Positions 1,340 to 48,943 of a stretch of 64,000 nucleotides of DNA are shown here, piece after piece. The position numbers and the translations under genes were made by a program. The first letter of the stretch is position 1. Each line of letters starts with the position of its first letter. Origin of the DNA: an uncultured Methanosarcinales archaeon (GTDB lineage Archaea > Nanobdellota > Nanobdellia > Woesearchaeales > CAIVOO01); the NCBI GenBank assembly GCA_964485195.1, contig CAZAIK010000004.1:33673-97672 (forward strand). The letters are read 5' to 3'. The notes below the pieces were generated by a model, which was not told the DNA's origin, did no database searches, and saw only the letters and a program-made list of their open reading frames with translations.

Positions 1340-1939
1340 TCAGGCTTTTTTGAATGAGAAAAAATATGTTCTGTTGTTTGGATCATCCTGTATTCCTGAA
1401 ACAAGTATCTCCAGGTTTGGATAATCCTTAATGACATTTTCAGATGCTATTGCAGCGATATTGTTTGCACTTTCTTCGCTTACAGCCCTGGCAGCCTCCG
1501 AAGTTGTATAAGCCACTTTTTCACCGTTAACATAATAGGAAGTTATAAGTTTGGCAGAGCTTCTTCGGAGATATTCCGAGCACTGCTGCGCAGCTTTTGG
1601 GTGAGTTAGTGTTTCTTCAATGTCCCCTGTGCGCGCTCCCTTCAGCCCTATAATGTTCATCCTGACAGGTATGAGAAATTCGTCAACTTTCACTATTCTC
1701 TTGTCTCTCAAGGCAATGGAGTTCCCTGTCAATTCAAAATCAATAACCCTTTTTGTCTGCTCAACCGGTCCTGAGGACGAATTGAAATAAGGAAGGATTC
1801 CCTGATCGACTTCTTCATCAATAACTGACTGCAGCACTTGGCTGACATCTGAACAGAATAATGTTTCAGGCATTTTATACCTTTTCAACACAGCTTCTTC
1901 AGAGAAGCTTCCTTTTGGTCCCAGTGTCGCGATTTTCAT
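1340..1939 (-). CDS. Prephenate (or arogenate) dehydratase catalytic domain only. No ACT regulatory domain.
   Basis: MKIATLGPKGSFSEEA matches the PDT N-terminal motif. At 199 aa it ends before any ACT domain. Paralog of the full-length PheA at 7280. Confidence 0.7.
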   Translation of the reverse strand: MKIATLGPKGSFSEEAVLKRYKMPETLFCSDVSQVLQSVIDEEVDQGILPYFNSSSGPVEQTKRVIDFELTGNSIALRDKRIVKVDEFLIPVRMNIIGLKGARTGDIEETLTHPKAAQQCSEYLRRSSAKLITSYYVNGEKVAYTTSEAARAVSEESANNIAAIASENVIKDYPNLEILVSGIQDDPNNRTYFFSFKKA

Positions 1940-2025
1940 ATTGAACAGAGAAATTTTTTATTTAATAACTGCTTCTGCAAAAAGACCGAAAATATTATGG
2001 TAACATCCAGAAGCTTTCCAGTTTT

Positions 2026-3711
2026 TTGTCGGGAATCCATTTTAATCAAAATAATAATTATTTTCTCATGGGGCACGAAACAATAAGGGACGTCAGAAAG
2101 CTTTTCCTCAACAGGGATAATATGGACGAATTCATTCGTTTAACAATCGGCGCCTTGACAGAGATGGTTAACTGGTATACCGGAATCGAGATTGAAAATA
2201 ATTTGAAGATTAATCCAGGCGATTACAAAAATGTGGGGGTGCACAATGGCTGTTCTGTTGAGGAGGCAGGCAAAAGAACAATAGAGCGGATACCGGAAGA
2301 GCTGCCAAAACAGCTGACTGAATCCTTAAACAGTGAACTTGAAGAGATAGTGAATTTCCTGAAAAACGAAATAAGGTTCAATGAGAATTTTATGGGCCAG
2401 ATGCACCCCTCCCAAAACATCGCTTCCTACGCTGCAGGAATAGCGGCTAAGTTTGTGAATGGAAATACCGTTACAGGCAGTGTTTCAAGGGCCACATCCC
2501 AGATTGAGCAAAACAGGGCAGTGCGTTGGCTTTGTGAAATTTTGGGGTATTCCCCTGAAAAAGCATCTGGCACCATTGTTTCAGGGGGGACAAAAGCAAA
2601 TTTAACAGCCCTGGTGATAGCAAGGAACCGTGCATTGTTCCATCTTCAGGAAATAAACAACGAACCGTTTGAGCAGTACCTGTTAACACCTGAGCAAATC
2701 CTGGATTTTAGCGAAAAAAGCTCTGCAATTATGGAAAACCACGGGGTTGCTAAAGTGGGAATGCAGGCGGTTAAGCCAAAGTGCGTCTTATACATGCCGG
2801 AAACAGCACATTACAGCCTTGTGCAGATACCCAATTTTATCGGGTTGGGAATTTCAAATATCAGGAAAATAAAAACAGACAAGAACCACAAAATAATAAT
2901 CCACGAGCTGACAAGACAGATAGAGCTGGACAAGTCAAGGGGAAATTACATAATAGGAATTATAGGTATTGCAGGAACAACAGAGGCGGGGGCTGTGGAT
3001 GACTTGGAATCTCTTGCAGGCATTGCTGAGGCATATAATCTTCACTTTCATATCGATGCGGCACATGGGGGTCCTTTCAGGATGGTGAGGCCAAACTTGT
3101 TCAAGGGGATGGAAAGGGCGGATACTATAACAGTAGACCCTCATAAAATGCTTTATTCACATTACAATGCGGGAGCTTTGCTTGTTAAGAACAAGGAATT
3201 CCTGAACCTGCTCAAGGCAAAAGCAGGATATCTGTTTGACAATGGTGTTTTAAACATAGGTGAGAACAGGATTGCCTGCTCAATGGGGCTGGAATCAGCC
3301 CTGCAAACATATGCTTCGCTGAAAGTTTTTGGTGAGGAAGGCTTGAAAGCACTTCTGAACCACAGCTTGGAGCTCACACAGAATTTTAAGAAGGTTATAG
3401 ATGCAGACAAAGACGAGGTGGGGAGGCACATCAAGCTTGTCAATCCCGAGCCGGACCTTAACCTGCTTTGTTTCAGGTATGAGAACACGGATTTAAGCAA
3501 AGAGGAACTGGACAGAATAAACAAGGAAGCCCAGCGCAGGCTTGAAGAGGAGGGAAAGTTCTATTTTTCAAGCGACAATATGAGCTACAGGCGGGGCATT
3601 GCAGTTCTCAGGGCTGTAATGATGAATCCCTTCACTACGGATGAAATTGTAAAATCGGCCTATGAGAGAACGAAGGACCTGATGTTGGAGGTGAAGAATG
3701 AGGGATTATGA
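2026..3711 (+). CDS. Group II pyridoxal-phosphate-dependent amino-acid decarboxylase, possibly aromatic/tyrosine decarboxylase-like. Unusually long at 561 aa.
   Basis: Motifs SGGTKANLTALVIARNR, HIDAAHGGPF and TVDPHKMLYSHY (PLP-lysine). The first codon is TTG; ATG at 2068 is an alternative start. The end overlaps the TyrRS start by 14 nt. Confidence 0.75.
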   Translation: MSGIHFNQNNNYFLMGHETIRDVRKLFLNRDNMDEFIRLTIGALTEMVNWYTGIEIENNLKINPGDYKNVGVHNGCSVEEAGKRTIERIPEELPKQLTESLNSELEEIVNFLKNEIRFNENFMGQMHPSQNIASYAAGIAAKFVNGNTVTGSVSRATSQIEQNRAVRWLCEILGYSPEKASGTIVSGGTKANLTALVIARNRALFHLQEINNEPFEQYLLTPEQILDFSEKSSAIMENHGVAKVGMQAVKPKCVLYMPETAHYSLVQIPNFIGLGISNIRKIKTDKNHKIIIHELTRQIELDKSRGNYIIGIIGIAGTTEAGAVDDLESLAGIAEAYNLHFHIDAAHGGPFRMVRPNLFKGMERADTITVDPHKMLYSHYNAGALLVKNKEFLNLLKAKAGYLFDNGVLNIGENRIACSMGLESALQTYASLKVFGEEGLKALLNHSLELTQNFKKVIDADKDEVGRHIKLVNPEPDLNLLCFRYENTDLSKEELDRINKEAQRRLEEEGKFYFSSDNMSYRRGIAVLRAVMMNPFTTDEIVKSAYERTKDLMLEVKNEGL

Positions 3712-4915
3712 GCTGGAGAGAATAATAGAGGAGCTTCAGAGGGGAGCTGTGGACTTCATCACGGACAAAGAGCTAGCTTGGAAATTCATCTCTGCTGAAA
3801 AGGAAAGGAGGTCTGTTGTTGTTAAATATGGTGTTGACCCCACTGCGCCTGAGGTACACATCGGCCATACCGTGACTTTGAGGAAATTAAGGCAGTTCCA
3901 GGATTTTGGCCAGCAAGTGACATTTTTGATAGGGGATTTTACCGCGAGAATTGGCGATCCTTCAGGAAAGGATGATGCAAGGAAGCCGATGACGGAAGAA
4001 GAGGTGGCTTCAAATGCAGAAACCTACAAAAAGCAGATATTCAAGATATTAAACCCTGAAAAAACAAACATCGTGTACAATAGTAGCTGGCTCAAACAGC
4101 TTATGCTTGAAAACTGCCTTAAGCTTTTGGGGAGCGGAACTATCAATGACCTGATAAAAAGGAGATCGTTTGCAAAAAGGTTTGAGGAAGGAAAGCCGGT
4201 GTCGGCAATAGAATTAGTATACCCTTTTCTGCAGGGCTACGACTCTGTTTTCTTGAATTCAGATGTTGAGGTAGGAGGAACAGACCAGTACTTCAACCTT
4301 GTTTTCGCGAGGGAATTGCAGAAAAAATATGGGCAGGAGCCTCAAGCAGTAATCACAATGCCCCTCCTTGAGGGGCTTGACGGCGACGAAAAGATGAGCA
4401 AGAGTCTTGGCAATCACGTGGGGATTGATGAGGACCCAAAAACAATGTATGCAAAAATAATGTCCTCAAATGACAGGGTGATGTTCAAGTATTTCAGGCT
4501 GCTCACCCAAATCCCCCTTTCAGATGTGGAGAAACTGGAAAAAGAGGTGGAAAAGGGAAGCTTACACCCGATGGATGTGAAGATGAAACTTGCTTTTGAT
4601 ATTGTTTCGCAGTATCATGGAAACCCGCAGGCTGGCCAGGCGCAGGAAGAGTTTATCAACATCCACAGGCACAAACAAACACCCTCCGAGATGCCGACAT
4701 ATTTCCTTGAATCGGGAAAGCCGGCAACCATAGCGGACGTACTGGTTGAGGGGGGCATTGCAAGCTCAAAAAGCCAGGCAAGAAGGCTGGTCCAGCAAAG
4801 AGGCGTGAGACTTAATAACATAACACTTGAAGATGCGGACAGGCCAATTGAGTTTGAAGACGGGGACACAATCAACGTAGGGAAAAGAAGGTATCTTCAG
4901 TTGAAGTATAAATAG
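3698..4915 (+). CDS. tyrS: Tyrosyl-tRNA synthetase, bacterial type, with a C-terminal S4-like RNA-binding domain.
   Basis: HIGH motif (PEVHIGHTV), KMSKS, FLIGDFTARIGDPSGK, LQGYD, and a C-terminal S4-like segment (SKSQARRLVQQRGVRLNN). 405 aa. Confidence 0.85.
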   Translation: MRDYELERIIEELQRGAVDFITDKELAWKFISAEKERRSVVVKYGVDPTAPEVHIGHTVTLRKLRQFQDFGQQVTFLIGDFTARIGDPSGKDDARKPMTEEEVASNAETYKKQIFKILNPEKTNIVYNSSWLKQLMLENCLKLLGSGTINDLIKRRSFAKRFEEGKPVSAIELVYPFLQGYDSVFLNSDVEVGGTDQYFNLVFARELQKKYGQEPQAVITMPLLEGLDGDEKMSKSLGNHVGIDEDPKTMYAKIMSSNDRVMFKYFRLLTQIPLSDVEKLEKEVEKGSLHPMDVKMKLAFDIVSQYHGNPQAGQAQEEFINIHRHKQTPSEMPTYFLESGKPATIADVLVEGGIASSKSQARRLVQQRGVRLNNITLEDADRPIEFEDGDTINVGKRRYLQLKYK

Positions 4916-5134
4916 ATGAACAAGCAGGGATTCAGCCACTTGTTAAAGCATTCCGAAGAGTTAAAGATTGTTTCTTTTTTTGAGAAGATAAAGAACCTCG
5001 TTGACTCTGTTGACATAGTCATTGACTGCCCCCTTCGGTTGTTGCGAAACCATATGAAAACATCCTGGAGATTCCCGGAAATAATCCGTAAAGCAAGGGC
5101 CAATTCTTTTTAACTTAAAAGAACAGAAAAAATC

Positions 5135-5868
5135 ATGAAAAAGTCAGATATTTTGATTGTAGGAACAGGAATCGCAGGAAGCCTGGCAGCTTATGAACTC
5201 CAAAAAATAGGGATAGATTATACATTAATAACTGAACAGGCAAATCCCCTCAGAAATGTCTCCAGCCTGAGCTTCGGCCATTTCAGGATTGCACGCATTG
5301 GCGAACTGGAGCAGTTTGTGAAAAGATGTGTTTTTGAGTTGGGGGAGGATGAGGAAAAAATGATGCTGGTGTATTCCAACAGCCATCTGACCTCTAGATT
5401 ACTGGGTGAGTTGGGGATGCCATTTGAAAAAAGGAGTTTTGGAGTCATCCCCACAACAAAGGGAAGGGGAGGGGCGTGCTTGTTGGCGAAACAGTCAGAA
5501 AAGGCTCGTTTGTTGATGAAAACGGAAAAGCGGTATTTGACAGGAGAACAGAGAAAATGCTGAAGCAGGATAATTACCACGAAATATTTCCTCAGATAAC
5601 AGAGCGAATCAGAACAAGGGAAAAACAAGGCCACAAGGTTTATTTTATGCAAGGGGATAATATGATTCCCATAACCCCCTATGTTCATTACACTGCGGGA
5701 GGGATTAAAACAGACAGGCTAGGCAGGGTTGAAGGGTGTGAAGACCTTTTTGCAGTGGGTGAATGCCAGGCCAACGGATTCAAAAACAACGGCAGGCTTC
5801 CTGGATATCCCTTCACATCCGCGGTTGTTTACTCAAAAATCCTGGCAGAATATTTCAGTAAGATTTAA
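5135..5868 (+). pseudogene. Frameshifted, miniature FAD-dependent oxidoreductase related to L-aspartate oxidase / succinate dehydrogenase flavoprotein.
   Basis: ORF 5135..5563 carries the N-terminal DILIVGTGIAGSLAAYEL FAD-binding site. ORF 5476..5868 in another frame carries HYTAGGI and LFAVGECQANG...NNGRLPGY. The capping domain is missing; the two pieces total about 245 aa against roughly 500 expected. Confidence 0.5.
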
Positions 5869-6037
5869 ATATGACATATGAGTAACAATGAATATGAGCA
5901 AAGCAGGCAAACAGAATTTGAATGAGTTTGCTAGCCAGTACTCTGGGTTCTATTATTTTTATTGAACAGGGATTCTCTTTTTAGTAGGAATCCCATCACA
6001 AGAAACCTAGAGCCAGCACTATAAAAAAAGTTTGGAG

Positions 6038-6162
6038 CCTCGCTTAGCTCAACGGCAGAGCGTTCGGCTGTAGAAAACACAAGACAAGGTCCCTTATGGG
6101 GTGAGAATGAAATGTGTTCAGCTGATACCGAAAGGTTGCCAGTTCAAATCTGGCAGCGGGGA
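6038..6162 (+). tRNA. tRNA-Tyr (anticodon GUA) with a 53-nt intron at the canonical 37/38 position (6074..6126). C1-G72 pair and A73 discriminator.
   Basis: Cloverleaf folded by hand. Acceptor CCTCGCT/AGCGGGG, D-stem GCTC/GAGC, anticodon stem TTCGG/CCGAA, loop CTGTAG|A, T-arm GCCAG-TTCAAAT-CTGGC. Confidence 0.75.
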
Positions 6163-6177
6163 TACGGAGGTAACAAA

Positions 6178-6450
6178 ATGGAGCTGAAAGAAATAAGAGA
6201 GCACCTGGACAGGCTGGACAATGCGCTTGTCTGGATTTTGGCAGAAAGGATGAGTTTTATTCCGAAGGTTGCGGAATTTAAAGCAAAAAACAAGATGGAG
6301 AGGTACCAGCCCGAGAGGGAAAAGGCAATTCTGGAATCAAAGAAAAAACTGGCAGAACAGCAGGGGGTTAATCCGGCTTTGGCAGAGGGCCTGTTCAAAA
6401 GGATTATAGAGGACGCCCACCGCATCGAAGAGGGAATAATAGGAAAATGA
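6178..6450 (+). CDS. Chorismate mutase, AroQ class.
   Basis: MELKEIREHLDRLDNALVWILAERMSF is the typical CM motif. Starts 16 nt after the tRNA-Tyr 3' end. Its stop overlaps the next start. Confidence 0.8.
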   Translation: MELKEIREHLDRLDNALVWILAERMSFIPKVAEFKAKNKMERYQPEREKAILESKKKLAEQQGVNPALAEGLFKRIIEDAHRIEEGIIGK

Positions 6451-7283
6451 GGCCAGAAACAATCTCAATCATCGGCGGAACCGGCAAGATGGGCAGTATG
6501 TTCAGGAACATCTTTGAGAAAGAAGGATACAAAGTTGTTGTTAGCGGAAAAAACACAGAGATAAGCCCTGAAGAGGCAGCTGCCAAAGGAGATGTTGTAA
6601 TAGTCACGGTTCCCATAAGGAAGACAATCGAAACAATCAAGAAAATAGGGCCCCATGTTAAAAAAGAAGCTCTCCTGACTGATTTTACCTCAGTGAAGGT
6701 GGAGCCTGTCAAGGTAATGCTTGAGAGTTCTGAAGCAGATGTCATTGGGGGGCATCCTGTTTTCGGCCCCACGGTTAAACTGAAGGGACAGTATTATGTC
6801 TTATGCCCTGCCCGGGGAGAACGATACCTTGGCTGGTTCAAGGGATTTCTGGAAGGGAGGGGTTGCAAGGTAATCATCAAGACCCCAGAAGACCATGACA
6901 AGACTATGGGGATAATCCAGTGCTTAACCCATCTGAGTGTAATTGCAATGGGAGGGGTTTTAAAGAGTATGAACATCGATATAGGTAAAACACTTGAGCT
7001 TGCATCCCCAATCTACAAGATGAGAATAGGAATAGTGGGAAGGATACTCAATCAGGACCCCGAACTTTACTCCGACATCCAGATTTACAACTCAAGCTCT
7101 ATGGAGATAGGAGAGGAATACAAAAAATCAATTGAAAAGCTCCTGAAGATAATTGAAGCAAGGGACTTGCAGGCATTTGACAGGTTTTTCAAAGAAGCGA
7201 AAGAATATCTTGGGGACTTTTGCAAACAGGCGCAGGAGGAAAGCGATTATATGCTTAAAAAACTGGCTGAGAGGGAAAAGTGA
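6447..7283 (+). CDS. tyrA: Prephenate dehydrogenase.
   Basis: N-terminal Rossmann motif IIGGTGKMGSMF. GGHPVFGP. Overlaps its neighbours by 4 nt on both sides. Confidence 0.8.
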   Translation: MRPETISIIGGTGKMGSMFRNIFEKEGYKVVVSGKNTEISPEEAAAKGDVVIVTVPIRKTIETIKKIGPHVKKEALLTDFTSVKVEPVKVMLESSEADVIGGHPVFGPTVKLKGQYYVLCPARGERYLGWFKGFLEGRGCKVIIKTPEDHDKTMGIIQCLTHLSVIAMGGVLKSMNIDIGKTLELASPIYKMRIGIVGRILNQDPELYSDIQIYNSSSMEIGEEYKKSIEKLLKIIEARDLQAFDRFFKEAKEYLGDFCKQAQEESDYMLKKLAEREK

Positions 7284-8104
7284 AAACAGGTACATTAGGG
7301 CCCAGGGGAAGCTTCAGCGAAATTGCTGCCAGGAGGCATGATAAACAAACAGAAATTGTTTTCTTCAGGCATATCTATGAGATTTTTGATGCTGTTAGAA
7401 ATGCAGAGGTTGATGAGGGTGTAGTTCCCATTGAAAATATGATTGAAGGCACGGTCAGGGAAGTGCTTGACAGGTTGTATGAGAACGACTTGAAAATCAT
7501 CAAGGAAGTGATCGTTCCGATACACCACTGCCTGGCAGCCCAATCTGATGATTTCAGCAAAATAATCTCGCACCCCCAGGCACTGGCACAGTGCTCTGTT
7601 TTTCTGAAGCAGCATAAGGAAAAATATGTTGAAGTGGAAGAAACAACAAGCACCTCAAAAGCCATGGAGATTGCTGGGGAAAATCTGGAATGCGCAGCCA
7701 TTGGCTCTCCAAGGGCGGCAGAGTTGAATAACCTCAAAATTATAGGCACAGAGATTGAGAATAACGAGAGAAATGCAACAAGATTTATCATAATCAGCAG
7801 GACCCAGGAGGAAAGAAAACAGGAAGACGCGAAGTTCAAAACGAGCATAGCGCTGCATCCTGCTGAAGACCGCCCGGGCCTTTTGTTTGATATTCTCGCT
7901 ATCTTTAAAATACAAAATGTCAACCTCACAAAAATAGAGTCAAGGCCCACTGAAAAAAAGCTGGGGGAGTACATATTTTACATTGACTTTGAAGGACATC
8001 GGCAGGATGAAAATATAAAACCTGTAATAGATTTCTTAAAATCAATTGTTCCAACCATAAAAATATTCGGGAGCTATGAAACAGAGAATGACAGTCAGCA
8101 ATAA
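7280..8104 (+). CDS. pheA: Prephenate dehydratase with a C-terminal ACT domain.
   Basis: TLGPRGSFSE, HPQALAQC, and a C-terminal ACT domain (GLLFDILAIFKIQNVNLTKIESRP). GTG start. Confidence 0.85.
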   Translation: MKTGTLGPRGSFSEIAARRHDKQTEIVFFRHIYEIFDAVRNAEVDEGVVPIENMIEGTVREVLDRLYENDLKIIKEVIVPIHHCLAAQSDDFSKIISHPQALAQCSVFLKQHKEKYVEVEETTSTSKAMEIAGENLECAAIGSPRAAELNNLKIIGTEIENNERNATRFIIISRTQEERKQEDAKFKTSIALHPAEDRPGLLFDILAIFKIQNVNLTKIESRPTEKKLGEYIFYIDFEGHRQDENIKPVIDFLKSIVPTIKIFGSYETENDSQQ

Positions 8105-9185
8105 AGTAAGGAATATGGACCTGAGCGGCGTCAGAAAAATGTTTGAGATGGCATCTAGTATTGAAAACCCTGTCAGCTTAACGATAGGCGAGCCTGATTT
8201 TGACATTCCTGAAAATGTAAAGCAAAAGGCAATAGAGGCAATTAAAAAGGGAAACACAAAATACACTCCCACAACAGGAATCGTCGAATTGAGGAGAGCT
8301 CTGCTGGAAAAACTCAAGAGCGAAAATAATATCACTGTTGGCGAGGAACAGCTCATAGTAACTTCAGCTGCTTCAGGGGCCCTGTCAATAATCCTTACAA
8401 CAATTCTGGAAGAAGGGGATGAAGTTATCATACCTGACCCTTATTTTGTGGCATACAAGCATCTTGTAATACAGAATGAGGCAACCCCCGTATTCGTGCA
8501 TTCAAAAAAGGATTTTTCGCTTAATCTTGAGAAAATAAAAGCAGCAATCAACAGTAAAACAAAGGCAATTTTGATTAATTCTCCCAATAATCCCGCAGGA
8601 AAGGTTTACTCGAAGGAGGAATTAGGAAAACTTGCTGAAATTGCGCGGGAAAACAACCTGCTTATAATCTCGGATGAGATTTATGAGAAATTTGTATTTG
8701 ACAAAAAGCATTTCAGCGTAGGCAGCATTTATGAGAACACAATAACAATAAATGGATTTTCAAAATCCCATGCAATGACAGGCTCAAGAGTTGGCTATTG
8801 TGTTGGGCCAAAGGGAATAATCCAAAACGCAATAAAGGTCCAGCAGGTCAATTTTGTGTGCGCGCCCACAGCGTTTCAGTATGCAGCAATAGAGGCATTA
8901 AAAACTCCTGTGGATAAAGAGCGGGAAGAGTACAGGAAAAGAAGGGATATGATTTATGAAGGGCTGAAAGGCAAGTACGAGATGGTGAAGCCCGAAGGAG
9001 CATTTTACGCTTTTGTAAAATACCCCTACAGGGGCGATAAATTTGTCAGGGACTGCCTTGAAAAAAATCTCCTGGTAGTTCCAGGAAAAACATTCTCAGA
9101 AAAAGATAGTCATTTCAGGATATCGTTTGCAGCAAGCCGGGAAACAATAAAGAAAGGGATAGAAATACTTAATTCCCTTATTTAA
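8076..9185 (+). CDS. Class I aminotransferase (aspartate/aromatic aminotransferase family).
   Basis: LTIGEPDFDIPENV, NSPNNPAGKVY, and SKSHAMTGSRVGY carrying the PLP-lysine. Confidence 0.85.
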   Translation: MKQRMTVSNKVRNMDLSGVRKMFEMASSIENPVSLTIGEPDFDIPENVKQKAIEAIKKGNTKYTPTTGIVELRRALLEKLKSENNITVGEEQLIVTSAASGALSIILTTILEEGDEVIIPDPYFVAYKHLVIQNEATPVFVHSKKDFSLNLEKIKAAINSKTKAILINSPNNPAGKVYSKEELGKLAEIARENNLLIISDEIYEKFVFDKKHFSVGSIYENTITINGFSKSHAMTGSRVGYCVGPKGIIQNAIKVQQVNFVCAPTAFQYAAIEALKTPVDKEREEYRKRRDMIYEGLKGKYEMVKPEGAFYAFVKYPYRGDKFVRDCLEKNLLVVPGKTFSEKDSHFRISFAASRETIKKGIEILNSLI

Positions 9186-9501
9186 CCCATCCGCACCTGT
9201 TCTCTTCCTTTACGCATCCGCATTCATAGCCCTGCGTTACTGGATGGTTTTCCACAATCTCGCAGGTTGAAAGCATATCTTCCCACTTTGCTGTGTCGTT
9301 CGTGCAGATAGTGTGGCCTCCTCCGCAGCCGTAATCAAAATTTGTGCAGTCTGAATCGCTGGTGCAGGCGCCGTCAGACCAGTTGAAAGTGAAGGACCTG
9401 TAAGTTGCCGAGTCAGTATCCATAGAGCAGGCTGTCAGAACCAAGACTGCAGCGATTAACGGAACCATTAATATTGTTGCGGTTTTACGCATAGCCCTCA
9501 T
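9178..9501 (-). CDS. Small secreted cysteine-rich protein with a lipobox-like signal peptide (LTAC).
   Basis: MRAMRKTATILMVPLIAAVLVLTAC... with 8 Cys in the mature part. Confidence 0.5.
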   Translation of the reverse strand: MRAMRKTATILMVPLIAAVLVLTACSMDTDSATYRSFTFNWSDGACTSDSDCTNFDYGCGGGHTICTNDTAKWEDMLSTCEIVENHPVTQGYECGCVKEENRCGWVK

Positions 9502-9532: not shown

Positions 9533-10291
9533 TTAACCAAGCAAAGCGCCAGCAGGCATCGCCCCGGACAGGTATAAAACAATCACGATTGCCGGTTCGT
9601 GAAGCAGATAAATCAGCAATGAGCGCCTGCCCAGGAAAGCCAGGGATTTCACTGCCGGAAATCCTGACAAATCCGGAATCCGAAACCCTCTTCTGGAATT
9701 CATGTAGAGTGCATTGCCTATAAAGATTCCAACCAATACCAGGCCGAACCAGGGCAGGACGGGGAAATAGTCAAAAGAATAAAGCTCCCTGGGCGTGAAA
9801 CCAAGCCACAGGAGCCATTTGAAATCAAACGTGAAATTCCTCAGGAACAGCCCCGCAGTTATGAACACTGCCCCGAGCAGGAGATTAAGATATTTGTGCT
9901 TCAGCAAGGGGTAGGCGAGAATTATTGAAATTCCGATAAGGTGCAAGATACCGAATATCACAAAACCTTCCCGCAAAAAAATAAATGTGATTAATGTTAT
10001 CAGCAGCCCCCACGAGAATATCTTAACCCCTCTTTTTAGATATCTCCCCAATAACTGCTTTTTTGTTTTGTTCTCCTTAGCCCGCGAAAAACTGAGAGTC
10101 AATGAAATTCCCACGAGAAGAAGGAAAATGCTTGCCGTGATTCTCGCGAAAACAAGCCAGAACCCGGAAGTCAGGACAAAACTTTTGCCGGCGAAATAGT
10201 TAAGGTCGTAAAGGAAATGGAAGACTATCATCATAACTATTGCTGTTCCTCTCAGAGAGTCCATTTCCCAGAAACGAAAATTGGCAGCCAC
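9533..10291 (-). CDS. DUF1624-family membrane protein (HGSNAT-like acyltransferase fold).
   Basis: EMDSLRGTAIVMMIVFHF signature and multiple TM helices. Confidence 0.6.
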   Translation of the reverse strand: MAANFRFWEMDSLRGTAIVMMIVFHFLYDLNYFAGKSFVLTSGFWLVFARITASIFLLLVGISLTLSFSRAKENKTKKQLLGRYLKRGVKIFSWGLLITLITFIFLREGFVIFGILHLIGISIILAYPLLKHKYLNLLLGAVFITAGLFLRNFTFDFKWLLWLGFTPRELYSFDYFPVLPWFGLVLVGIFIGNALYMNSRRGFRIPDLSGFPAVKSLAFLGRRSLLIYLLHEPAIVIVLYLSGAMPAGALLG

Positions 10292-21254: not shown

Positions 21255-23873
21255 ATGGACATTTTGCTCATAATAATTATTGTAGTTTTGGCTATAATCG
21301 GCTTTAAAGTCTTCAGTCTGCTATTCTCTGCCATTGGCAAAATCCTCATAATCCTCCTGCTGGTCCTGGTGGCTTATGCAGTTTTTGTGCACGCTGACAG
21401 GGACCTGGCCTTTGAAGGGTATGTCTTCCCGGACCAGAGCATAACTGTAGACGAAAACCCTTTTATCATAAAATTTGAGCCTGACCAAAGGCCTTCCAGC
21501 ATACAGGTTGACTATTATCAAAAATATTTTTTCATTAACAAAGGCCACTGCAAAACCATAGTGAACGTGGATATCTGTTTTGCGAACACGATATATGACC
21601 TGGAATTCAACAAATTCAAGGCGAATATAAGCGCATACAAGGTAGAGCCGGACCTGACAATAAGAAGGACAATAAACGATTCCAGGCTTGTTGTCGGCGA
21701 AAGCGCAAGGATATTCATCAATGTAACAAACGGCGTGGGCATACCTGCCAGTGATTTCAGGTTTACAGACTCCTTTTCCCCTGAAGAGTTTGAGATAGAG
21801 GATGTCGACGGGGACTGCATTGGGGAAAACAACAGCATAACTTATGCCGGAACTTTAAGGGAAAACGAAAAAATATCCTGCGAGTACGAGCTCAGGGCGC
21901 TAAAGGAATTGACAAGGTCTTCCAGGGCAAGGGCAAGCTATTTTAACGGAGTCGAGGATGAGGTATTGTTCTCAAACCCCATAAACTTTGAAGTGGACCC
22001 CGCTTTCTCCATAAAAACCAGTTTTAACGAGTCTGACAGGAAAGTATATGAGGGAGAGAAGGTTCTTTTCATCGTCAATATATCAAATAAGCATCCTGAC
22101 GAGGAGATGGAAAATGTGGTGCTTGATATTTACCTTCCTTCAGGCCTGGCTTTTGAAAGGACAAGCTCTTTTGAAGTGTATTTCAACCGGACAAGCAACA
22201 GGACCATACGCTCCCAAAGGATTGAGAGGGTTAGTGAGGGGGTTTACCAGTTCACAGGCAATCTTTTGGAGGGCACTTCCAAATTCATTGTAATGGAATT
22301 GAAAACAACAAATACTGGCAGGTCTGACATACTCCTGGACGCTTCCTATGAAATTGGCACAGAGAAAAAAGAGGTTAATGAAAAGGAATCCCTGGAAGTT
22401 GAGCACAAGGAAATAGTTCTTTTTGCTAATTTTGAAGACGGGGCAATCTTTGATTCAGGAGAAGAGAAGCTGATAAAAATAGGGGTCTCAAATCCCAGCG
22501 ATCATATACTCCTGAAGAACATAAACATCAGGGTGGACACTTCCATTGCAGATAACCTTTCCGGCTCTGTCCTGGCACTGGACAAGCTCAAGGCAGCAAC
22601 CCTGATAAACAAGCGTGTAAAGATGCCCTCTGTTGATAGCAACAGGAATTACCAGTTTGACGTGATCGCAAGTTATGACACGGAATACGGAGTTCATCAC
22701 GAGGAAACATTCGAATATGACTTCAAGATAGAAGCAACAAGGGGCCTTTCAGTCAATCACGACATCAGCAGGACCTCTGTGGAGGCAGGAGAGACTTTCA
22801 CGGTCAAGACAAGGATAACAAACAACAGGAATACCGACATTAAGAACATAAGGGTCTTTGATGTTGTGCCCCAGGAATTCCAGAGAAAAGGCCTGAATTC
22901 GATAAGCAACCTTAATGTGCTGGCAAAAGACACAGTGACGGCATATGAGTACAGGATGGCCGCTCCTGAAGTGGAAACCCCCAAAGTATACTCATTCAGG
23001 ACCACTGCAAGATTTGAGGAGGAAAACAAGACCTATGCTTTTGAAAGGCAGTTCCAAATAACAGTAAATCCAAGGAAAGTAGACCTTTCCATTGCCAATG
23101 CAGTTTCAGACCCAACCACTTATGAGGGGGCTGTGCTGGACATACTTTACACCCTGCAGAACCCAGATGATGAAAAGACATTGAGGGACATAACATTGTC
23201 TTTCCCTGTCCAGCAGGATGTTGACCTGATAGGCCACAGGAATTTTTCAATAAACCGGCTGCTGCCAGGTGAAAGTTACACATTAAGAAAGATTCACAAG
23301 ATAAGGCTGAAAAATAACGGCTCCATAAGGCTGAACCCCGCCCTGATTGCTTATGAGGATGAGAACGGGAACACATTCAAAAAGAATTCATCCTCTTTAT
23401 CATTGAACGCCAAGGAGGGGTACATCACAGGCCCGGCTTTCTTTATAACCAAGGAATCAAATTCCTCTGCGACAAGGGGAGAGATGGTGACTGTCAGAAT
23501 AACTGTGGAGAACATTGGCACTGAGAAGGGAAAAATCACAATCGCAGACTCCGGAAAGGCGTGGAACCTGAACGTGGGGCCGGAGGAAAAGAATGCAATA
23601 ACCTATAAGATAAGGGCGGAAACCGCAGGCCGGCTGAATCTAAAACCTGCCTCTGGAAAATATGAATACAGGAACAAGCCTGCGTACACAGTGTCCAACA
23701 GCGCGTTCACAGATGTCAAAGAAAAAGTAGTAACAGAGCTGGAAGAAGAGGAAGAAGAGGAAGAAATACAGAACGTAACAGTTGAAAAAGTGGAGGAACC
23801 CGAAGAAAAGGGATTCTTCCAGGTTGTCTGGAATGCTATAAGCAATATCTTTAAAGTGTTTTCAGGGAGGTGA
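21255..23873 (+). CDS. Large (872 aa) membrane-anchored surface protein with repeated beta-sandwich domains (DUF11/CARDB-like) and an acidic poly-Glu C-terminus.
   Basis: N-terminal TM segment; repeated V-x-V-x-N-x-G motifs (for example VTVENIGTEKGKIT); EEEEEEEE linker. Confidence 0.6.
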   Translation: MDILLIIIIVVLAIIGFKVFSLLFSAIGKILIILLLVLVAYAVFVHADRDLAFEGYVFPDQSITVDENPFIIKFEPDQRPSSIQVDYYQKYFFINKGHCKTIVNVDICFANTIYDLEFNKFKANISAYKVEPDLTIRRTINDSRLVVGESARIFINVTNGVGIPASDFRFTDSFSPEEFEIEDVDGDCIGENNSITYAGTLRENEKISCEYELRALKELTRSSRARASYFNGVEDEVLFSNPINFEVDPAFSIKTSFNESDRKVYEGEKVLFIVNISNKHPDEEMENVVLDIYLPSGLAFERTSSFEVYFNRTSNRTIRSQRIERVSEGVYQFTGNLLEGTSKFIVMELKTTNTGRSDILLDASYEIGTEKKEVNEKESLEVEHKEIVLFANFEDGAIFDSGEEKLIKIGVSNPSDHILLKNINIRVDTSIADNLSGSVLALDKLKAATLINKRVKMPSVDSNRNYQFDVIASYDTEYGVHHEETFEYDFKIEATRGLSVNHDISRTSVEAGETFTVKTRITNNRNTDIKNIRVFDVVPQEFQRKGLNSISNLNVLAKDTVTAYEYRMAAPEVETPKVYSFRTTARFEEENKTYAFERQFQITVNPRKVDLSIANAVSDPTTYEGAVLDILYTLQNPDDEKTLRDITLSFPVQQDVDLIGHRNFSINRLLPGESYTLRKIHKIRLKNNGSIRLNPALIAYEDENGNTFKKNSSSLSLNAKEGYITGPAFFITKESNSSATRGEMVTVRITVENIGTEKGKITIADSGKAWNLNVGPEEKNAITYKIRAETAGRLNLKPASGKYEYRNKPAYTVSNSAFTDVKEKVVTELEEEEEEEEIQNVTVEKVEEPEEKGFFQVVWNAISNIFKVFSGR

Positions 23874-23876
23874 ACA

Positions 23877-24275
23877 ATGGGAATCTTTTCATTCCTAAAA
23901 AAGAAAAAGAAGCCTGAAGAAAAAAAGGGAAAAGGCGCAATGAACCTGGATGTCAACCTGCCGCCAATTGAGCCGGTAAAGCCGCATCCCTCTGCTCCGG
24001 AAACCCCTGAAACAGCCCCGGAACACCCTTATCCCGGCCAGGGCAGGCAGCCGGAGCCCAGCCCTTACACTCCTCCCTCCTTTCCTTCACCAGAACAGCC
24101 CCAGGCATTTAAGGAAGCTGAGTCATACCGTGCTGAGGTTGCCAACAAGGACCTGGCCAAGAGCCTGGACCTGCTATCTGCCAAATTAGACGCGATAAAG
24201 GTGATGATTGAGAATCTCAACCACAGGATTGACAAGCTGGAGCAGAAGGAGAAGAGAGAAACAGTAAGATGGTAA
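23877..24275 (+). CDS. Proline-rich protein with a C-terminal coiled coil.
   Basis: PxP-rich middle section (PPIEPVKPHPSAPETPETAPEHPYP) and a C-terminal heptad. Confidence 0.4.
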   Translation: MGIFSFLKKKKKPEEKKGKGAMNLDVNLPPIEPVKPHPSAPETPETAPEHPYPGQGRQPEPSPYTPPSFPSPEQPQAFKEAESYRAEVANKDLAKSLDLLSAKLDAIKVMIENLNHRIDKLEQKEKRETVRW

Positions 24276-24733
24276 AGAAGGTTTCTGCGAAGCTCCTGTT
24301 CATCCTTGCTATCAGTCTGCTCGTTGCCGACCAGCTAACCAAGATGATGGTCAGGAACCTTGGCGAATCAGTGCCTGTAATAAAAAACATATTTCACATA
24401 ACCTTTGTAATGAATTTTGGAGTGGCATTTGGCCTGTTGCAGGGTTACAACCATATCGTGATATGGCTTTACCTCGTGGTACTGGGCCTGATAATATTCT
24501 TTTACGACAGGTTTCCAAAAGACAGGTTCACACAGGCAATGCTTTTTATAATCATAGCAGGAATCTTAGGAAACTTTGTAGACAGGATGGCATTCGGCTA
24601 TGTCATTGACTTCATAGACTTCAGGGTATGGCCTGTTTTCAACCTGGCAGACCTTTATCTTAATATAGGGATAATAGGGTTAATAGGAAGGGAAATCCTG
24701 AAAGGAAAATCAAAGAAAGCAACTGCTGACTGA
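24269..24733 (+). CDS. lspA: Lipoprotein signal peptidase (signal peptidase II, LspA).
   Basis: Aligns with the LspA boxes: NFGVAFGLL, GNFVDRM (catalytic Asp), VFNLAD (catalytic Asp). Four TM helices. Confidence 0.8.
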   Translation: MVKKVSAKLLFILAISLLVADQLTKMMVRNLGESVPVIKNIFHITFVMNFGVAFGLLQGYNHIVIWLYLVVLGLIIFFYDRFPKDRFTQAMLFIIIAGILGNFVDRMAFGYVIDFIDFRVWPVFNLADLYLNIGIIGLIGREILKGKSKKATAD

Positions 24734-24735
24734 TT

Positions 24736-25089
24736 TTAAAACTCGCTTTCCATCTCTTCCAACGGCTTAAGATACCCTTTTGACTTGAGCCATTTGACCT
24801 GTGTTGGAGTGTACTTGAATATTATGTCCCCTTTTGTCTCTCCGGAATATTCCCACGGCTCCACAATAACTATAAATCCCTGCTTAACCCACAGTCTCCT
24901 TTTCAGCCTGCCGGGCACCCTGCAAATTCTTGTCTTGCCGTCGAAACACTTGACTTCCATACGGCCGGAGCCAAGCATCCTGGAAACTATCCCCAGGGAC
25001 TGGTTTCCTCTCGGCAGCTTGATTCTTCTTATCTCTGTTTGTATCCTTTGATGCTCTGCGGCAGCTTCTGCTTCTCTCTTCTTGCTCAT
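24736..25089 (-). CDS. Translation initiation factor aIF-1A.
   Basis: GRMEVKCFDGKTRICRVPGRLKRRLWV...GDIIFKY is the S1-like OB signature of eIF1A. Confidence 0.85.
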   Translation of the reverse strand: MSKKREAEAAAEHQRIQTEIRRIKLPRGNQSLGIVSRMLGSGRMEVKCFDGKTRICRVPGRLKRRLWVKQGFIVIVEPWEYSGETKGDIIFKYTPTQVKWLKSKGYLKPLEEMESEF

Positions 25090-25140: not shown

Positions 25141-26286
25141 ATGCCTGCAAAATTTTCCGAAGCGCAGACCAAGGATGTGGTGCACGGGCTGGAAGGCGTA
25201 AAGGCAGTCGCGACAATAAAGTCAAAAGTTGACGGTTCCGGTGAAGGCGCGCTTTTCTACGAAGGGTATAATATTTCTGAGCTGGCAGAAAAATCCTCTT
25301 TTGAGGAAGTTGTTTTTCTTTTATTGTACGACAAGCTTCCCAACAAGAAGGAACTGAACGAGCTTGAAAAAAAGCTAAGGTCTTACAGAAAACTTGATGA
25401 AAACGTTGTTGAATTGTTAAGGAAGGCAAAAGGGCATCCCGTGGCTGTTTTGAGAACAGCTGTTTCCGCGCTTTCATCTTTTGACAAAGAGTCCGAAGAT
25501 TCCTCTTATGAGGCAAATGAAAGAAAAGCTTTAAGGCTGATAGCCCAGATTCCTGTAATAATCGCTGTTTACAACAGGCTGAGGAAAGGCGGGGAATTGA
25601 TTGAGCCTGAAGGGAACCTGAACACAGCGGCTAATTTTGTTTATATGCTCGCCGGAGAGAAAGACGAGCTGAAGTCAAGGATTATGGACATTATTCTGGT
25701 TCTGCACGCTGATCACGGCCTGAATGCTTCAACTTTTGCTGCAAGAGTGACAACGTCAACGCTTTCTGATATGTATTCCGCGATAACCTCCGCAATCGGG
25801 ACATTGAAAGGTCCTCTTCACGGAGGAGCGAATGAGCAGGTGCTGAAGATGCTGCTGGGCCTTGAAGGCGATGTCAAGGAATGGGTTATGGGCAAGATTG
25901 CAAAAAAGGAAAAGATAATGGGAATAGGCCATCGCGTTTACAAAGGAGGGGATCCAAGGGCGAAGATACTGAAAAGATATGCAAAGGAATTAAGCGAGGA
26001 AACAGGCAAATCCAAATTATATGAAAGGTTGAGAACAATAGAGGAAACAGTTGACAAGGAAAAAGGGCTCAAGCCCAATGTTGACTTCTATTCCGCGCTG
26101 GTCTTCCACTGCGCAGGAATCCCCCCTGACTTGTTCACACCAATATTTGCGATGTCAAGGATAGCCGGATGGGCCTCCCACGTGCTTGAGCAATACGCCA
26201 ACAACAGGCTGTTAAGGCCCAAGGCTGTTTATGTTGAAGAGCTGGCTCCCCTTGGAAGAGAATATATTGAGATTGATAAAAGATAG
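25141..26286 (+). CDS. Citrate synthase.
   Basis: GPLHGGANE and GHRVYK motifs and a C-terminal SRIAGW. Confidence 0.85.
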   Translation: MPAKFSEAQTKDVVHGLEGVKAVATIKSKVDGSGEGALFYEGYNISELAEKSSFEEVVFLLLYDKLPNKKELNELEKKLRSYRKLDENVVELLRKAKGHPVAVLRTAVSALSSFDKESEDSSYEANERKALRLIAQIPVIIAVYNRLRKGGELIEPEGNLNTAANFVYMLAGEKDELKSRIMDIILVLHADHGLNASTFAARVTTSTLSDMYSAITSAIGTLKGPLHGGANEQVLKMLLGLEGDVKEWVMGKIAKKEKIMGIGHRVYKGGDPRAKILKRYAKELSEETGKSKLYERLRTIEETVDKEKGLKPNVDFYSALVFHCAGIPPDLFTPIFAMSRIAGWASHVLEQYANNRLLRPKAVYVEELAPLGREYIEIDKR

Positions 26287-26495
26287 ACATTTCTGGAACT
26301 GTAAGGTTGTAGTCGTTTAATTGTGGTAATGCTGGCACTGCGCTCCTCTGCTTCATTAATCTCTTCTAAACCCTATTTATTCGTAGTTTGAGAGGTTATA
26401 AGATAACTCCGCTCGGCAGTGACAGCGCCAACACAGAACACTTGACTTAACCATATTTGAGAAACATTTTTAAAAACAAAGCAAAAAAGGATTAC

Positions 26496-26957
26496 ATGCC
26501 AAAAGCTGTGCTGATTCCAGCGTGGAAGCGTCTCGTCGCTTTTATCATAGACATTCTCATCGTGGATTTCCTGTTGCTCTACCCTTTTACAGACATATCT
26601 GAAAAAGCCTTTTCAGCAGTCCGCGCCGATTTCCTTATTTTTCAGGGCTCCCTGGTTGCACTAATCCTGTCTGTTTCAGCAATCTACATTCTTTATTTCA
26701 CGTTTTTTGAATGGATTCTCGGGCAGACCATTGGAAAGATGTTCATTAGGTCCACATCAGCGAACCTTAATAACAAGCAGATGAATTTCTGGCAGGCCCT
26801 GGGCAGAAACCTTTTTTTAATTCCTGTTGTTCCCTTCGTATTCCTCTGGGTTTTGGACCCCATATTTATCATATGGAAGGGCAGGTCCCTTAGCGAAATA
26901 TTTACAAAGACAAAAACAATTGAGGGTGAAAAATGGCTGGAAAAACAAAAACAGTAA
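26496..26957 (+). CDS. RDD-family membrane protein.
   Basis: RLVAFIIDILIVDF matches the RDD domain pattern. 3-4 TM helices. Confidence 0.55.
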   Translation: MPKAVLIPAWKRLVAFIIDILIVDFLLLYPFTDISEKAFSAVRADFLIFQGSLVALILSVSAIYILYFTFFEWILGQTIGKMFIRSTSANLNNKQMNFWQALGRNLFLIPVVPFVFLWVLDPIFIIWKGRSLSEIFTKTKTIEGEKWLEKQKQ

Positions 26958-27823
26958 TATTGATATTAGTGGGACTCTTTATCTTAAGCTGGCTCCTGGT
27001 TTCCCTCTTTAGCGAGTCAAAGTTCGGAAACGTCGCCCACATAGAAGTTAACGGGATAATACTTTCTGAGGACACAGGAGGGCTTTTCGGAGATGCAATA
27101 GCTTCATCGACAGACATCGCAGGTTTTATTGAAGATGCTAATGAAGACATCAATATAAGGGCAATACTTCTTGAGATTAACTCTCCCGGAGGAGCTCCTG
27201 TTGCTTCTGCTGAAATAGCGGATGCTGTGAAGAAGTCCAACAAGACAGTTGTGGCGTGGATCAGGGACACTGGAACTTCCGGAGCTTACTGGGCCGCCTC
27301 CCCTGCCTACAAAATCGTGGCCCACCCCCTGTCAATAACAGGAAGCATAGGAGTTCTGGGCTCTTATCTTCAGTATTCAGGACTGCTGGAAAGGTTCAAC
27401 ATAACGTACGAGAGATTGGTGGCGGGAGAGTACAAGGACATGGGCAGCCCGTTCAAGAAGCTGGAGCCGGATGAAAAGAGAAGCCTGCAGCACACCCTGG
27501 ACTTAATGCACGAGTATTTCATCCAGTCTGTCGCTGAAAACAGGGGGATGAGACTTGAAGAAATGCGGGAAATCGCTGACGGGAAATTCTTTCTGGGAAT
27601 GGAAGCCAAAGAAACAGGACTGGTTGATTTCCTTGGCGGGCAGGAAATAGCAGAGGAGATAATAAAGAAAAGGGAAAACCTTGCAGCGGTCCACCTGGTA
27701 AAATATGAGCAAAAAAGAACCTTGCTTGATATGCTTGCCAGCGTTGTGGGCAATATGGGCTTTTCCTTTGGCAAGGGCTTCTCGCACGGACTGCTTGAGC
27801 AAAGAGCTCCTGCCTGGACCTGA
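26933..27823 (+). CDS. sppA: Signal peptide peptidase SppA (S49 family).
   Basis: AILLEINSPGG and GTSGAYWAAS...GSIGV motifs. Confidence 0.8.
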   Translation: MAGKTKTVILILVGLFILSWLLVSLFSESKFGNVAHIEVNGIILSEDTGGLFGDAIASSTDIAGFIEDANEDINIRAILLEINSPGGAPVASAEIADAVKKSNKTVVAWIRDTGTSGAYWAASPAYKIVAHPLSITGSIGVLGSYLQYSGLLERFNITYERLVAGEYKDMGSPFKKLEPDEKRSLQHTLDLMHEYFIQSVAENRGMRLEEMREIADGKFFLGMEAKETGLVDFLGGQEIAEEIIKKRENLAAVHLVKYEQKRTLLDMLASVVGNMGFSFGKGFSHGLLEQRAPAWT

Positions 27824-39103: not shown

Positions 39104-39190
39104 GGCGGTAATAGTTTAGTGGCAGAATACAGGACTGTGGCAGAATACTGCGGAAATCCTGTGGCCCGGGTTCGATTCCCGGTTACCGCC
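39104..39190 (+). tRNA. tRNA-His (anticodon GUG) with a genome-encoded G-1, a C73 discriminator, and a 15-nt intron (39141..39155).
   Basis: Hand-folded. Acceptor GCGGTAA/TTACCGC, G-1 at 39104 pairs with C73. Anticodon stem CAGGA/TCCTG, loop CTGTGG|A. T-arm CCGGG-TTCGATT-CCCGG. Confidence 0.7.
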
Positions 39191-39206
39191 CTGTCATATT
39201 TTATAG

Positions 39207-48852: not shown

Positions 48853-48942
48853 AGCCCCGTAGTCTAGCGGCCAAGGATGTCAGGCTCTGGAGACTGGTTC
48901 AGGAGAAACCTGGAGACCGCGGTTCAAATCCGCGCGGGGCTA
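48853..48942 (+). tRNA. tRNA-Gln (anticodon CUG) with A1-U72 and a 17-nt intron (48891..48907).
   Basis: Hand-folded. Acceptor AGCCCCG/CGGGGCT, D-arm GTCT-AGCGGCCAA-GGAT, anticodon stem TCAGG/CCTGG, loop CTCTGG|A, T-arm CGCGG-TTCAAAT-CCGCG, discriminator A. Confidence 0.7.
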
Positions 48943-48943
48943 C

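Follow-up and report, generated by a model that had tools for sequence, protein, structure and literature searches.

Canonical bacterial-type LspA and Lgt enzymes in Woesearchaeota, a predicted lipoprotein-processing pair in an unexpected domain

The Woesearchaeota, a lineage of DPANN archaea, carry a lineage-wide pair of lipoprotein enzymes, Lgt and LspA, which is probably derived from bacteria and has been overlooked by the archaeal lipoprotein literature. The window, by which we mean the whole 64-kb stretch of DNA analysed here, encodes an LspA (signal peptidase II) that is a real and intact member of its family. Taken jointly, our results are best explained by a functional type II signal peptidase that would act in Woesearchaeota after a bacterial-type Lgt, a reading to which we assign a probability of about 0.8, as judged from sequences and a structural model. 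The parts of this explanation that were directly observed are the LspA family, its residues and fold, its genomic context, the synteny, the occurrence of Lgt in the lineage and the lipobox proteins.

Archaea have so far been described as devoid of this machinery. A 2018 FEMS review found no archaeal genome with homologues of signal peptidase II, Lgt or Lnt (PMC6098224), a study in Nature Communications in 2025 described archaea as being without Lgt and Lsp homologues (PMC12462473), and a 2026 mBio paper based on RefSeq genomes considered Lgt "absent from archaea" (PMC13251419). It is this premise that motivated the search for AliA and AliB. The first-pass annotation of this DNA described canonical Lgt/Lsp machinery as generally considered absent or rare in archaea. 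Our full-text literature searches found no paper reporting LspA or Lgt in DPANN archaea. GenBank records already carry PGAP names for the Woesearchaeal LspA and Lgt, so the news lies in the recognition of these genes and in their context, rather than in a new protein family. Indeed, the window LspA is an ordinary-looking member of a known family in an unexpected domain and not a new kind of system. What is corrected is the phyletic picture: both canonical enzymes are chromosomally encoded and conserved across Woesearchaeota as a lineage, and LspA becomes an obvious candidate for the enzyme that cuts lipoprotein signal peptides in one lineage of archaea at least.

The gene at the centre of this analysis is the following.

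24269 to 24733, plus strand: lspA, with an ATG start and the stop codon included, 154 amino acids.

Its product matches Peptidase_A8 in Pfam (PF01252; E=4.5e-31, 108.4 bits, for a gathering cutoff of 25) and the NCBIfam equivalog lspA (TIGR00077; 100.7 bits against a curated cutoff of 73.95), and its sequence retrieves solved LspA structures with HMMER (6RYO, E=1.2e-18; 5DIR and 9EMZ, around 1e-11). Five boxes are present, DQLTK (residues 21-25), NFGVAFG (49-55), GNFVDR (101-106), VIDFID (112-117) and FNLAD (124-128), which bears out the earlier identification of an LspA with all its signature boxes at this position. Olatunji et al. (2020; PMC6952399) described 14 highly conserved LspA residues, which in LspMrs are D21, K25, N52, G54, G102, N106, D109, R110, V116, D118, F132, N133, A135 and D136, with D118 and D136 as the catalytic dyad. 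Once mapped onto the window protein through a HMMER alignment, 14/14 are kept (D21, K25, N49, G51, G98, N102, D105, R106, V112, D114, F124, N125, A127 and D128). Across 58 archaeal and bacterial relatives, no variation occurs at D21, K25, N49, G51, N102, D105, R106, D114, F124, N125 and D128, and conservation reaches at least 90% at G98, V112 and A127. The predicted catalytic dyad is therefore composed of D114, in the V-x-D-F box (VIDFI), and D128, in FNLAD. The first-pass annotation had placed the catalytic aspartates in GNFVDRM and VFNLAD; the second of these stands, but the aspartate of GNFVDR (D105) corresponds to D109 of LspMrs, a conserved residue outside the catalytic dyad, and the partner of D128 would be D114 instead.

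The AF2 model of the protein, built from the alignment of the 58 relatives (pLDDT 92.2, pTM 0.84), has the four transmembrane helices and the beta-cradle of the LspA fold. With Foldseek, its matches in the PDB are LspA structures only and no other fold, with TM-scores of 0.84 to 6RYP, 0.81 to 6RYO and 0.71-0.76 to the chains of 5DIR. Compared with the bacterial enzymes of MEROPS family A8 (LspMrs of Staphylococcus aureus, 6RYO/6RYP, and LspPae of Pseudomonas aeruginosa, 5DIR), the window LspA presents the same four transmembrane helices and beta strands, a similar size, the 14/14 conserved residues including the aspartate dyad, 27-33% identity and TM-scores of 0.76-0.84. It differs from the S. 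aureus enzyme by a loop between the two dyad aspartates that is 4 residues shorter, and from bacterial LspA in general by its host, a Woesearchaeota archaeon, and by its neighbours, which include aIF-1A, proteasome and aCPSF1 genes instead of the ileS-lspA-lgt-rluD arrangement. Judging from its conserved residues, the window LspA would be enzymatically active.

In bacteria, LspA acts together with Lgt. The search for lgt that had been proposed in the first-pass annotation, run with tblastn on the 64-kb window, found none. Nevertheless, two relatives of the window carry both genes on the same contig, with a PF01790 protein located 4.3 kb upstream of lspA in locus L005 (GCA_019322805.1) and 3.2 kb upstream in locus L094 (GCA_019322485.1). 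The Lgt of L005 passes the TIGR00544 equivalog model (203 bits against a cutoff of 118.9), matches the Escherichia coli Lgt structure 5AZB (E=2e-42) and keeps the motifs SFHGG, GRxGNFINGE, HPSQLYE and FR...E. None of its best 120 database relatives falls below 55% identity, and every named one belongs to Woesearchaeota or Nanoarchaeota, so that the Woesearchaeota Lgt clade contains at least 120 proteins. In GCA_030651135.1, Lgt is flanked by genes for S10, aEF-1alpha, RpoK and exosome subunits, on a 272-kb contig that also encodes aCPSF1. The best bacterial Lgts among the matches listed (Geobacteraceae, Nitrospirota and Desulfobacterota) share 40-50% identity with the Woesearchaeal protein. 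Lgt is thus a conserved chromosomal gene of the Woesearchaeota lineage, and it may also be encoded in the window's own genome.

A scan of genome contigs with the Woesearchaeal Lgt, using the generic pattern IGNFINGE, mostly listed matches from Desulfobacterota and Nitrospirota, along with at least seven archaeal-labelled loci. A lspA gene within 10 kb of Lgt was found in 0/7 of the archaeal-labelled loci listed; therefore, the genome-level co-occurrence of Lgt and LspA rests on the two contigs mentioned above. An Lgt gene (L017:10001-10867, PF01790, 257 bits), from a contig labelled as an uncultured Methanosarcinales archaeon, was excluded as archaeal evidence because its neighbours (an MFS transporter, a CoA ligase, an aminotransferase, a macro domain protein and a hydrolase) are diagnostic of neither domain. 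No CN_hydrolase/LNT_N protein was found among the annotated neighbours. In comparison with the bacterial Lgt-LspA(-Lnt) pathway, Woesearchaeota thus share Lgt and LspA, located on one contig in two MAGs, as well as frequent canonical lipobox peptides. They differ in that they presumably have archaeal membranes, perhaps derived from a host, and in that lgt was not found in the 64-kb window.

The surroundings of lgt display a feature of their own. Directly upstream of it lies a conserved three-gene block (L005:1804-4952 and L094:2846-5981), of which the first gene encodes an extracytoplasmic thioredoxin/DsbA-like protein of about 335 aa and the second a 447-aa protein with a CPYC thioredoxin-like domain fused to a multi-TM region, resembling DsbD/CcdA. 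The third encodes a 257-aa protein with six TM segments and no family match; it overlaps the start of lgt, which it also precedes in L090 and L091. Together with lgt, this block in L005 and L094 may form a cluster for disulfide and lipoprotein maturation.

Candidate substrates were sought with a PROSITE-style scan for lipoprotein signal peptides in the window and 12 archaeal loci (266 kb), which gave 16 matches, 10 of them judged convincing on inspection, a count that, for these loci, answers the earlier suggestion to enumerate the lipobox proteins in favour of their presence. The single clear lipoprotein candidate of the window is the following.

9178 to 9501, minus strand: candidate substrate, a small Cys-rich secreted protein with the lipoprotein signal peptide MRKTATILMVPLIAAVLVLTAC/SMD and the lipobox LTAC (signal peptide scan).

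This protein, already pointed out in the first-pass annotation for its lipobox, indeed has a classic lipoprotein signal peptide. It has 46 homologues. The cysteine is invariant in the closest ones, in which the lipobox reads LAGC, VSGC, ILGC, LLGC, ITAC or ISGC and the residues at positions -3 to -1 vary; in distant homologues, a TM anchor replaces the lipobox. Directly upstream of the gene and on the same strand, we found a HGSNAT/DUF1624 membrane acyltransferase (9533-10291, minus strand; PF07786, 256 bits). Of the ten convincing cases, four are lipobox genes located directly downstream of lgt (L010:7829-8248, L011:10778-11113, L020:4871-5815 and L038:8197-8619). The proteins of L010, L020 and L038, and another lipobox protein in L091 (15007-15537), have in common a cupredoxin-like C-terminal domain. 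Halocyanin is the classical lipid-modified archaeal protein, and these four cupredoxin-like proteins would, from their sequences, be halocyanin-like lipoproteins.

We propose that lipobox proteins such as the product of 9178-9501 would be exported and that their lipobox cysteine would then receive a lipid, in thioether linkage, from a bacterial-type Lgt whose gene would lie in another part of the genome. LspA, as a four-TM membrane aspartyl protease, would cut directly before the lipid-modified cysteine by means of D114 and D128, and SppA may degrade the released signal peptide. The lipid that the cysteine would carry deserves particular attention. Bacterial Lgt uses ester-linked phosphatidylglycerol as its lipid donor, and the membranes of Woesearchaeota would have to offer such a lipid or an archaeal analogue that the enzyme accepts. 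In one MAG, a truncated PlsY-like ORF (glycerol-3-phosphate acyltransferase, PF02660; L090:6774-7232, minus strand, 152 aa) is found two genes upstream of lgt on a 272-kb Woesearchaeota contig, with a TIGR00023 score of 87 bits that is below the cutoff of 137; this neighbour of lgt is a hint, and not evidence, that bacterial-type acyl lipids are handled.

We slightly favour the view that the archaeal cells of Woesearchaeota operate an entire Lgt-LspA lipoprotein pathway of bacterial descent. If it holds, either Lgt and LspA would have adapted to ether-linked lipids such as archaetidylglycerol, or DPANN membranes would contain bacterial-type diacylglycerol phospholipids, the option at which the PlsY-like gene hints. 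Both options would invalidate the claim that Lgt and Lsp are missing from archaea and would make these archaea a natural system in which to test how lipoprotein enzymes deal with the lipid divide, and the enzymes would be candidates to complement the aliA/aliB mutants of Haloferax. In any case, the finding raises a testable question, namely which membrane lipid a bacterial-type Lgt transfers in a DPANN archaeon, and opens experiments on lipoprotein enzymes across this divide.

The foremost alternative regarding the partner of LspA is that it acts not after Lgt but after lipidation by the archaeal enzymes AliA and AliB (arCOG02177/02178), cleaving at an archaeol-modified cysteine and so filling the place of the missing archaeal lipoprotein signal peptidase. 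The haloarchaeal AliA/AliB system (PMC12462473, PMC13631571) reaches the same end, i.e. thioether lipidation of the lipobox cysteine followed by removal of the signal peptide, and it has no known signal peptidase; AliA and AliB show no detectable sequence homology to Lgt, whereas the Woesearchaeota enzymes belong to canonical bacterial families. The missing lgt in the 64-kb window would fit this alternative, as would the report that AliA occurs in DPANN "with some gaps", that DPANN are rich in predicted lipoproteins and that the archaeal lipoprotein signal peptidase is not yet identified (PMC12462473). However, canonical Lgt is both common and highly conserved in Woesearchaeota, two MAGs carry it close to lspA on one contig, and none of the annotated membrane proteins of the window (HGSNAT, MFS, TctA, RDD and an ion-transport protein) is AliA-like. 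We therefore regard a partnership with AliA/AliB as unlikely and retain the action of LspA after a bacterial-type Lgt.

The immediate neighbourhood of lspA in the window comprises the following features.

21255 to 23873, plus strand: 872-aa membrane-anchored surface protein with DUF11/CARDB/BatD-like repeats and N-terminal TM segments (family matches).
23877 to 24275, plus strand: 132-aa ORF with a Pro-rich middle and a C-terminal coiled-coil-like stretch (ORF call).
24736 to 25089, minus strand: aIF-1A, convergent with lspA, the two stop codons being 2 nt apart (PF01176, TIGR00523).
26933 to 27823, plus strand: SppA-type signal peptide peptidase (S49), 2.2 kb downstream of lspA (PF01343, 140.9 bits).

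The gene of the surface protein is the first of an apparent three-gene unit that ends in lspA, and equivalents of 872-878 aa lie upstream of lspA in loci L002 and L003. The 132-aa ORF has no family match in Pfam or NCBIfam, but ORFs of similar size occupy the same position in these relatives (136 aa in L002, 131 aa in L003), and a 7-nt overlap (ATGGTAA) between its stop codon and the start of lspA makes translational coupling probable. As a whole, the apparent operon (21255-24733) is kept in L002 and L003 but not in the sub-clade of L005 and L094. On the opposite strand, aIF-1A is an archaeal informational gene and was used as a conserved synteny marker; its start is probably an internal ATG, giving 117 aa as in its relatives. 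After lspA and aIF-1A, a pair formed by an RDD-family membrane protein and the S49 SppA (26457-27823) occurs in the window, L002 and L003, and from this conserved neighbourhood, SppA may be involved in clearing the cleaved signal peptides.

This setting could also suggest that the window protein is a paralogue of the LspA family with a diverged role, processing non-lipidated substrates or protecting the cell from LspA-targeting antibiotics. Indeed, an apparent operon with the 872-aa DUF11/CARDB protein and the 132-aa protein is unlike the bacterial ileS-lspA-lgt, and the loop between the dyad aspartates is shorter than that of S. aureus. Nevertheless, the protein passes the TIGR00077 equivalog cutoff, it keeps all the conserved residues that contact substrate and globomycin, a single lspA copy is present per locus, and the lineage possesses both Lgt and lipobox substrates. 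Such a change of role thus appears quite improbable, and a housekeeping signal peptidase that would process Lgt-modified lipoproteins is preferred.

The protein search retrieved 3020 LspA homologues. The closest, 47-69% identical, are metagenomic proteins, and the named near homologues are first annotated as signal peptidase II of Candidatus Woesearchaeota archaeon and then belong to Omnitrophota and Heliorestis, these closest bacterial homologues being 43-47% identical, similar to many archaeal ones. Genomic context was examined for seven homologues, five archaeal (L002, L003, L005, L092 from GCA_964403775.1, and L094) and two bacterial (L007 and L093). In 5/5 archaeal loci, whose LspA proteins are 41-69% identical to that of the window, lspA adjoins aIF-1A or is one gene away from it, and with the window included, the lspA/aIF-1A junction is present in six independent assemblies from different samples. 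In contrast, the two bacterial loci show the order ileS-dksA-lspA-lgt-rluD amid mur, fts and mre genes. A wider order is kept in L002 and L003, running from ArgRS through the 872-aa surface protein, the protein of about 132 aa and lspA to the opposite-strand aIF-1A, the RDD protein and SppA; of these two loci, only L003 has a citrate synthase between aIF-1A and the RDD protein.

The conservation of aIF-1A synteny at an LspA identity of only 41-69% points to an old acquisition and vertical inheritance, and not to a stray gene or a chimera. A phylogeny of LspA had been suggested as a check. In the NJ tree, the archaeal LspA that are named or verified by context are all placed apart from the bacterial ones, but this split has a bootstrap of only 44/100; therefore, the tree proves neither a single origin nor a donor, and we claim no donor. 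Synonymous sites are saturated between the archaeal lspA genes, leaving dN/dS mostly undefined; where omega could be computed, it ranges from 0.07 to 0.27, and dN is low. Together, the synteny, the NJ split and the saturated dS with low omega point to purifying selection on a gene that was acquired long ago and has been inherited vertically since. The flat GC and the conserved aIF-1A synteny argue for a transfer that would be ancient and lineage-wide, with bacteria as the probable source, rather than a recent event in the window genome, and an ancestor of the Woesearchaeota probably took up the Lgt/LspA pair from bacteria and passed it on vertically. The horizontally acquired bacterial pathway envisaged in the first-pass annotation is accordingly upheld at the level of the lineage, with its abundant Lgt, two linked contigs and lipobox proteins, but not within the 64-kb window as regards lgt.

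The contig itself is unambiguously archaeal and belongs to Woesearchaeota. The window encodes aIF-1A, proteasome beta, aCPSF1/FttA, Rpo7, Spt4, S24e, S27ae, L44e and S3Ae, together with a ribosomal P0 with the archaeal/eukaryotic insert domain, L1, an S-layer protein and a diphthamide synthesis gene, and its aCPSF1 shares 72-82% identity with proteins assigned by name to Candidatus Woesearchaeota archaeon. The GC content is flat across the window (about 0.44) with no island around lspA, and an independent Logan assembly of SRR7048220 is 100% identical to the window sequence across lspA. The earlier judgement that the flanking genes are archaeal and a chimera unlikely is thereby corroborated, and contamination or a chimera is rejected on the lspA/aIF-1A synteny and the independent assembly. 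Although LspA and Lgt are otherwise hallmarks of bacteria and the homologues of Omnitrophota and Heliorestis are as close as many archaeal ones, the reading of lspA as a bacterial gene that is stray, non-functional or of recent transfer, or as the product of chimeric assembly or binning, is effectively refuted by the junction shared between six assemblies, the Logan assembly, the flat GC, the 14/14 intact functional residues and the saturated dS with low dN.

Other features of the window concern its host more generally. Two regions (1340-9185 and 25141-26286) hold biosynthetic genes that are unusually many for a DPANN archaeon, with an aromatic amino acid cluster (chorismate mutase, prephenate dehydrogenase, two prephenate dehydratases and an aminotransferase) as well as a DHDPS-family gene and a citrate synthase. 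In addition, ARAGORN predicted a tRNA of 91 nt whose four-base anticodon (ctgg) was left unassigned (48853-48943) and a tRNA-Ala(GGC) of 87 nt (39105-39191), lengths that suggest intron-containing archaeal tRNAs.
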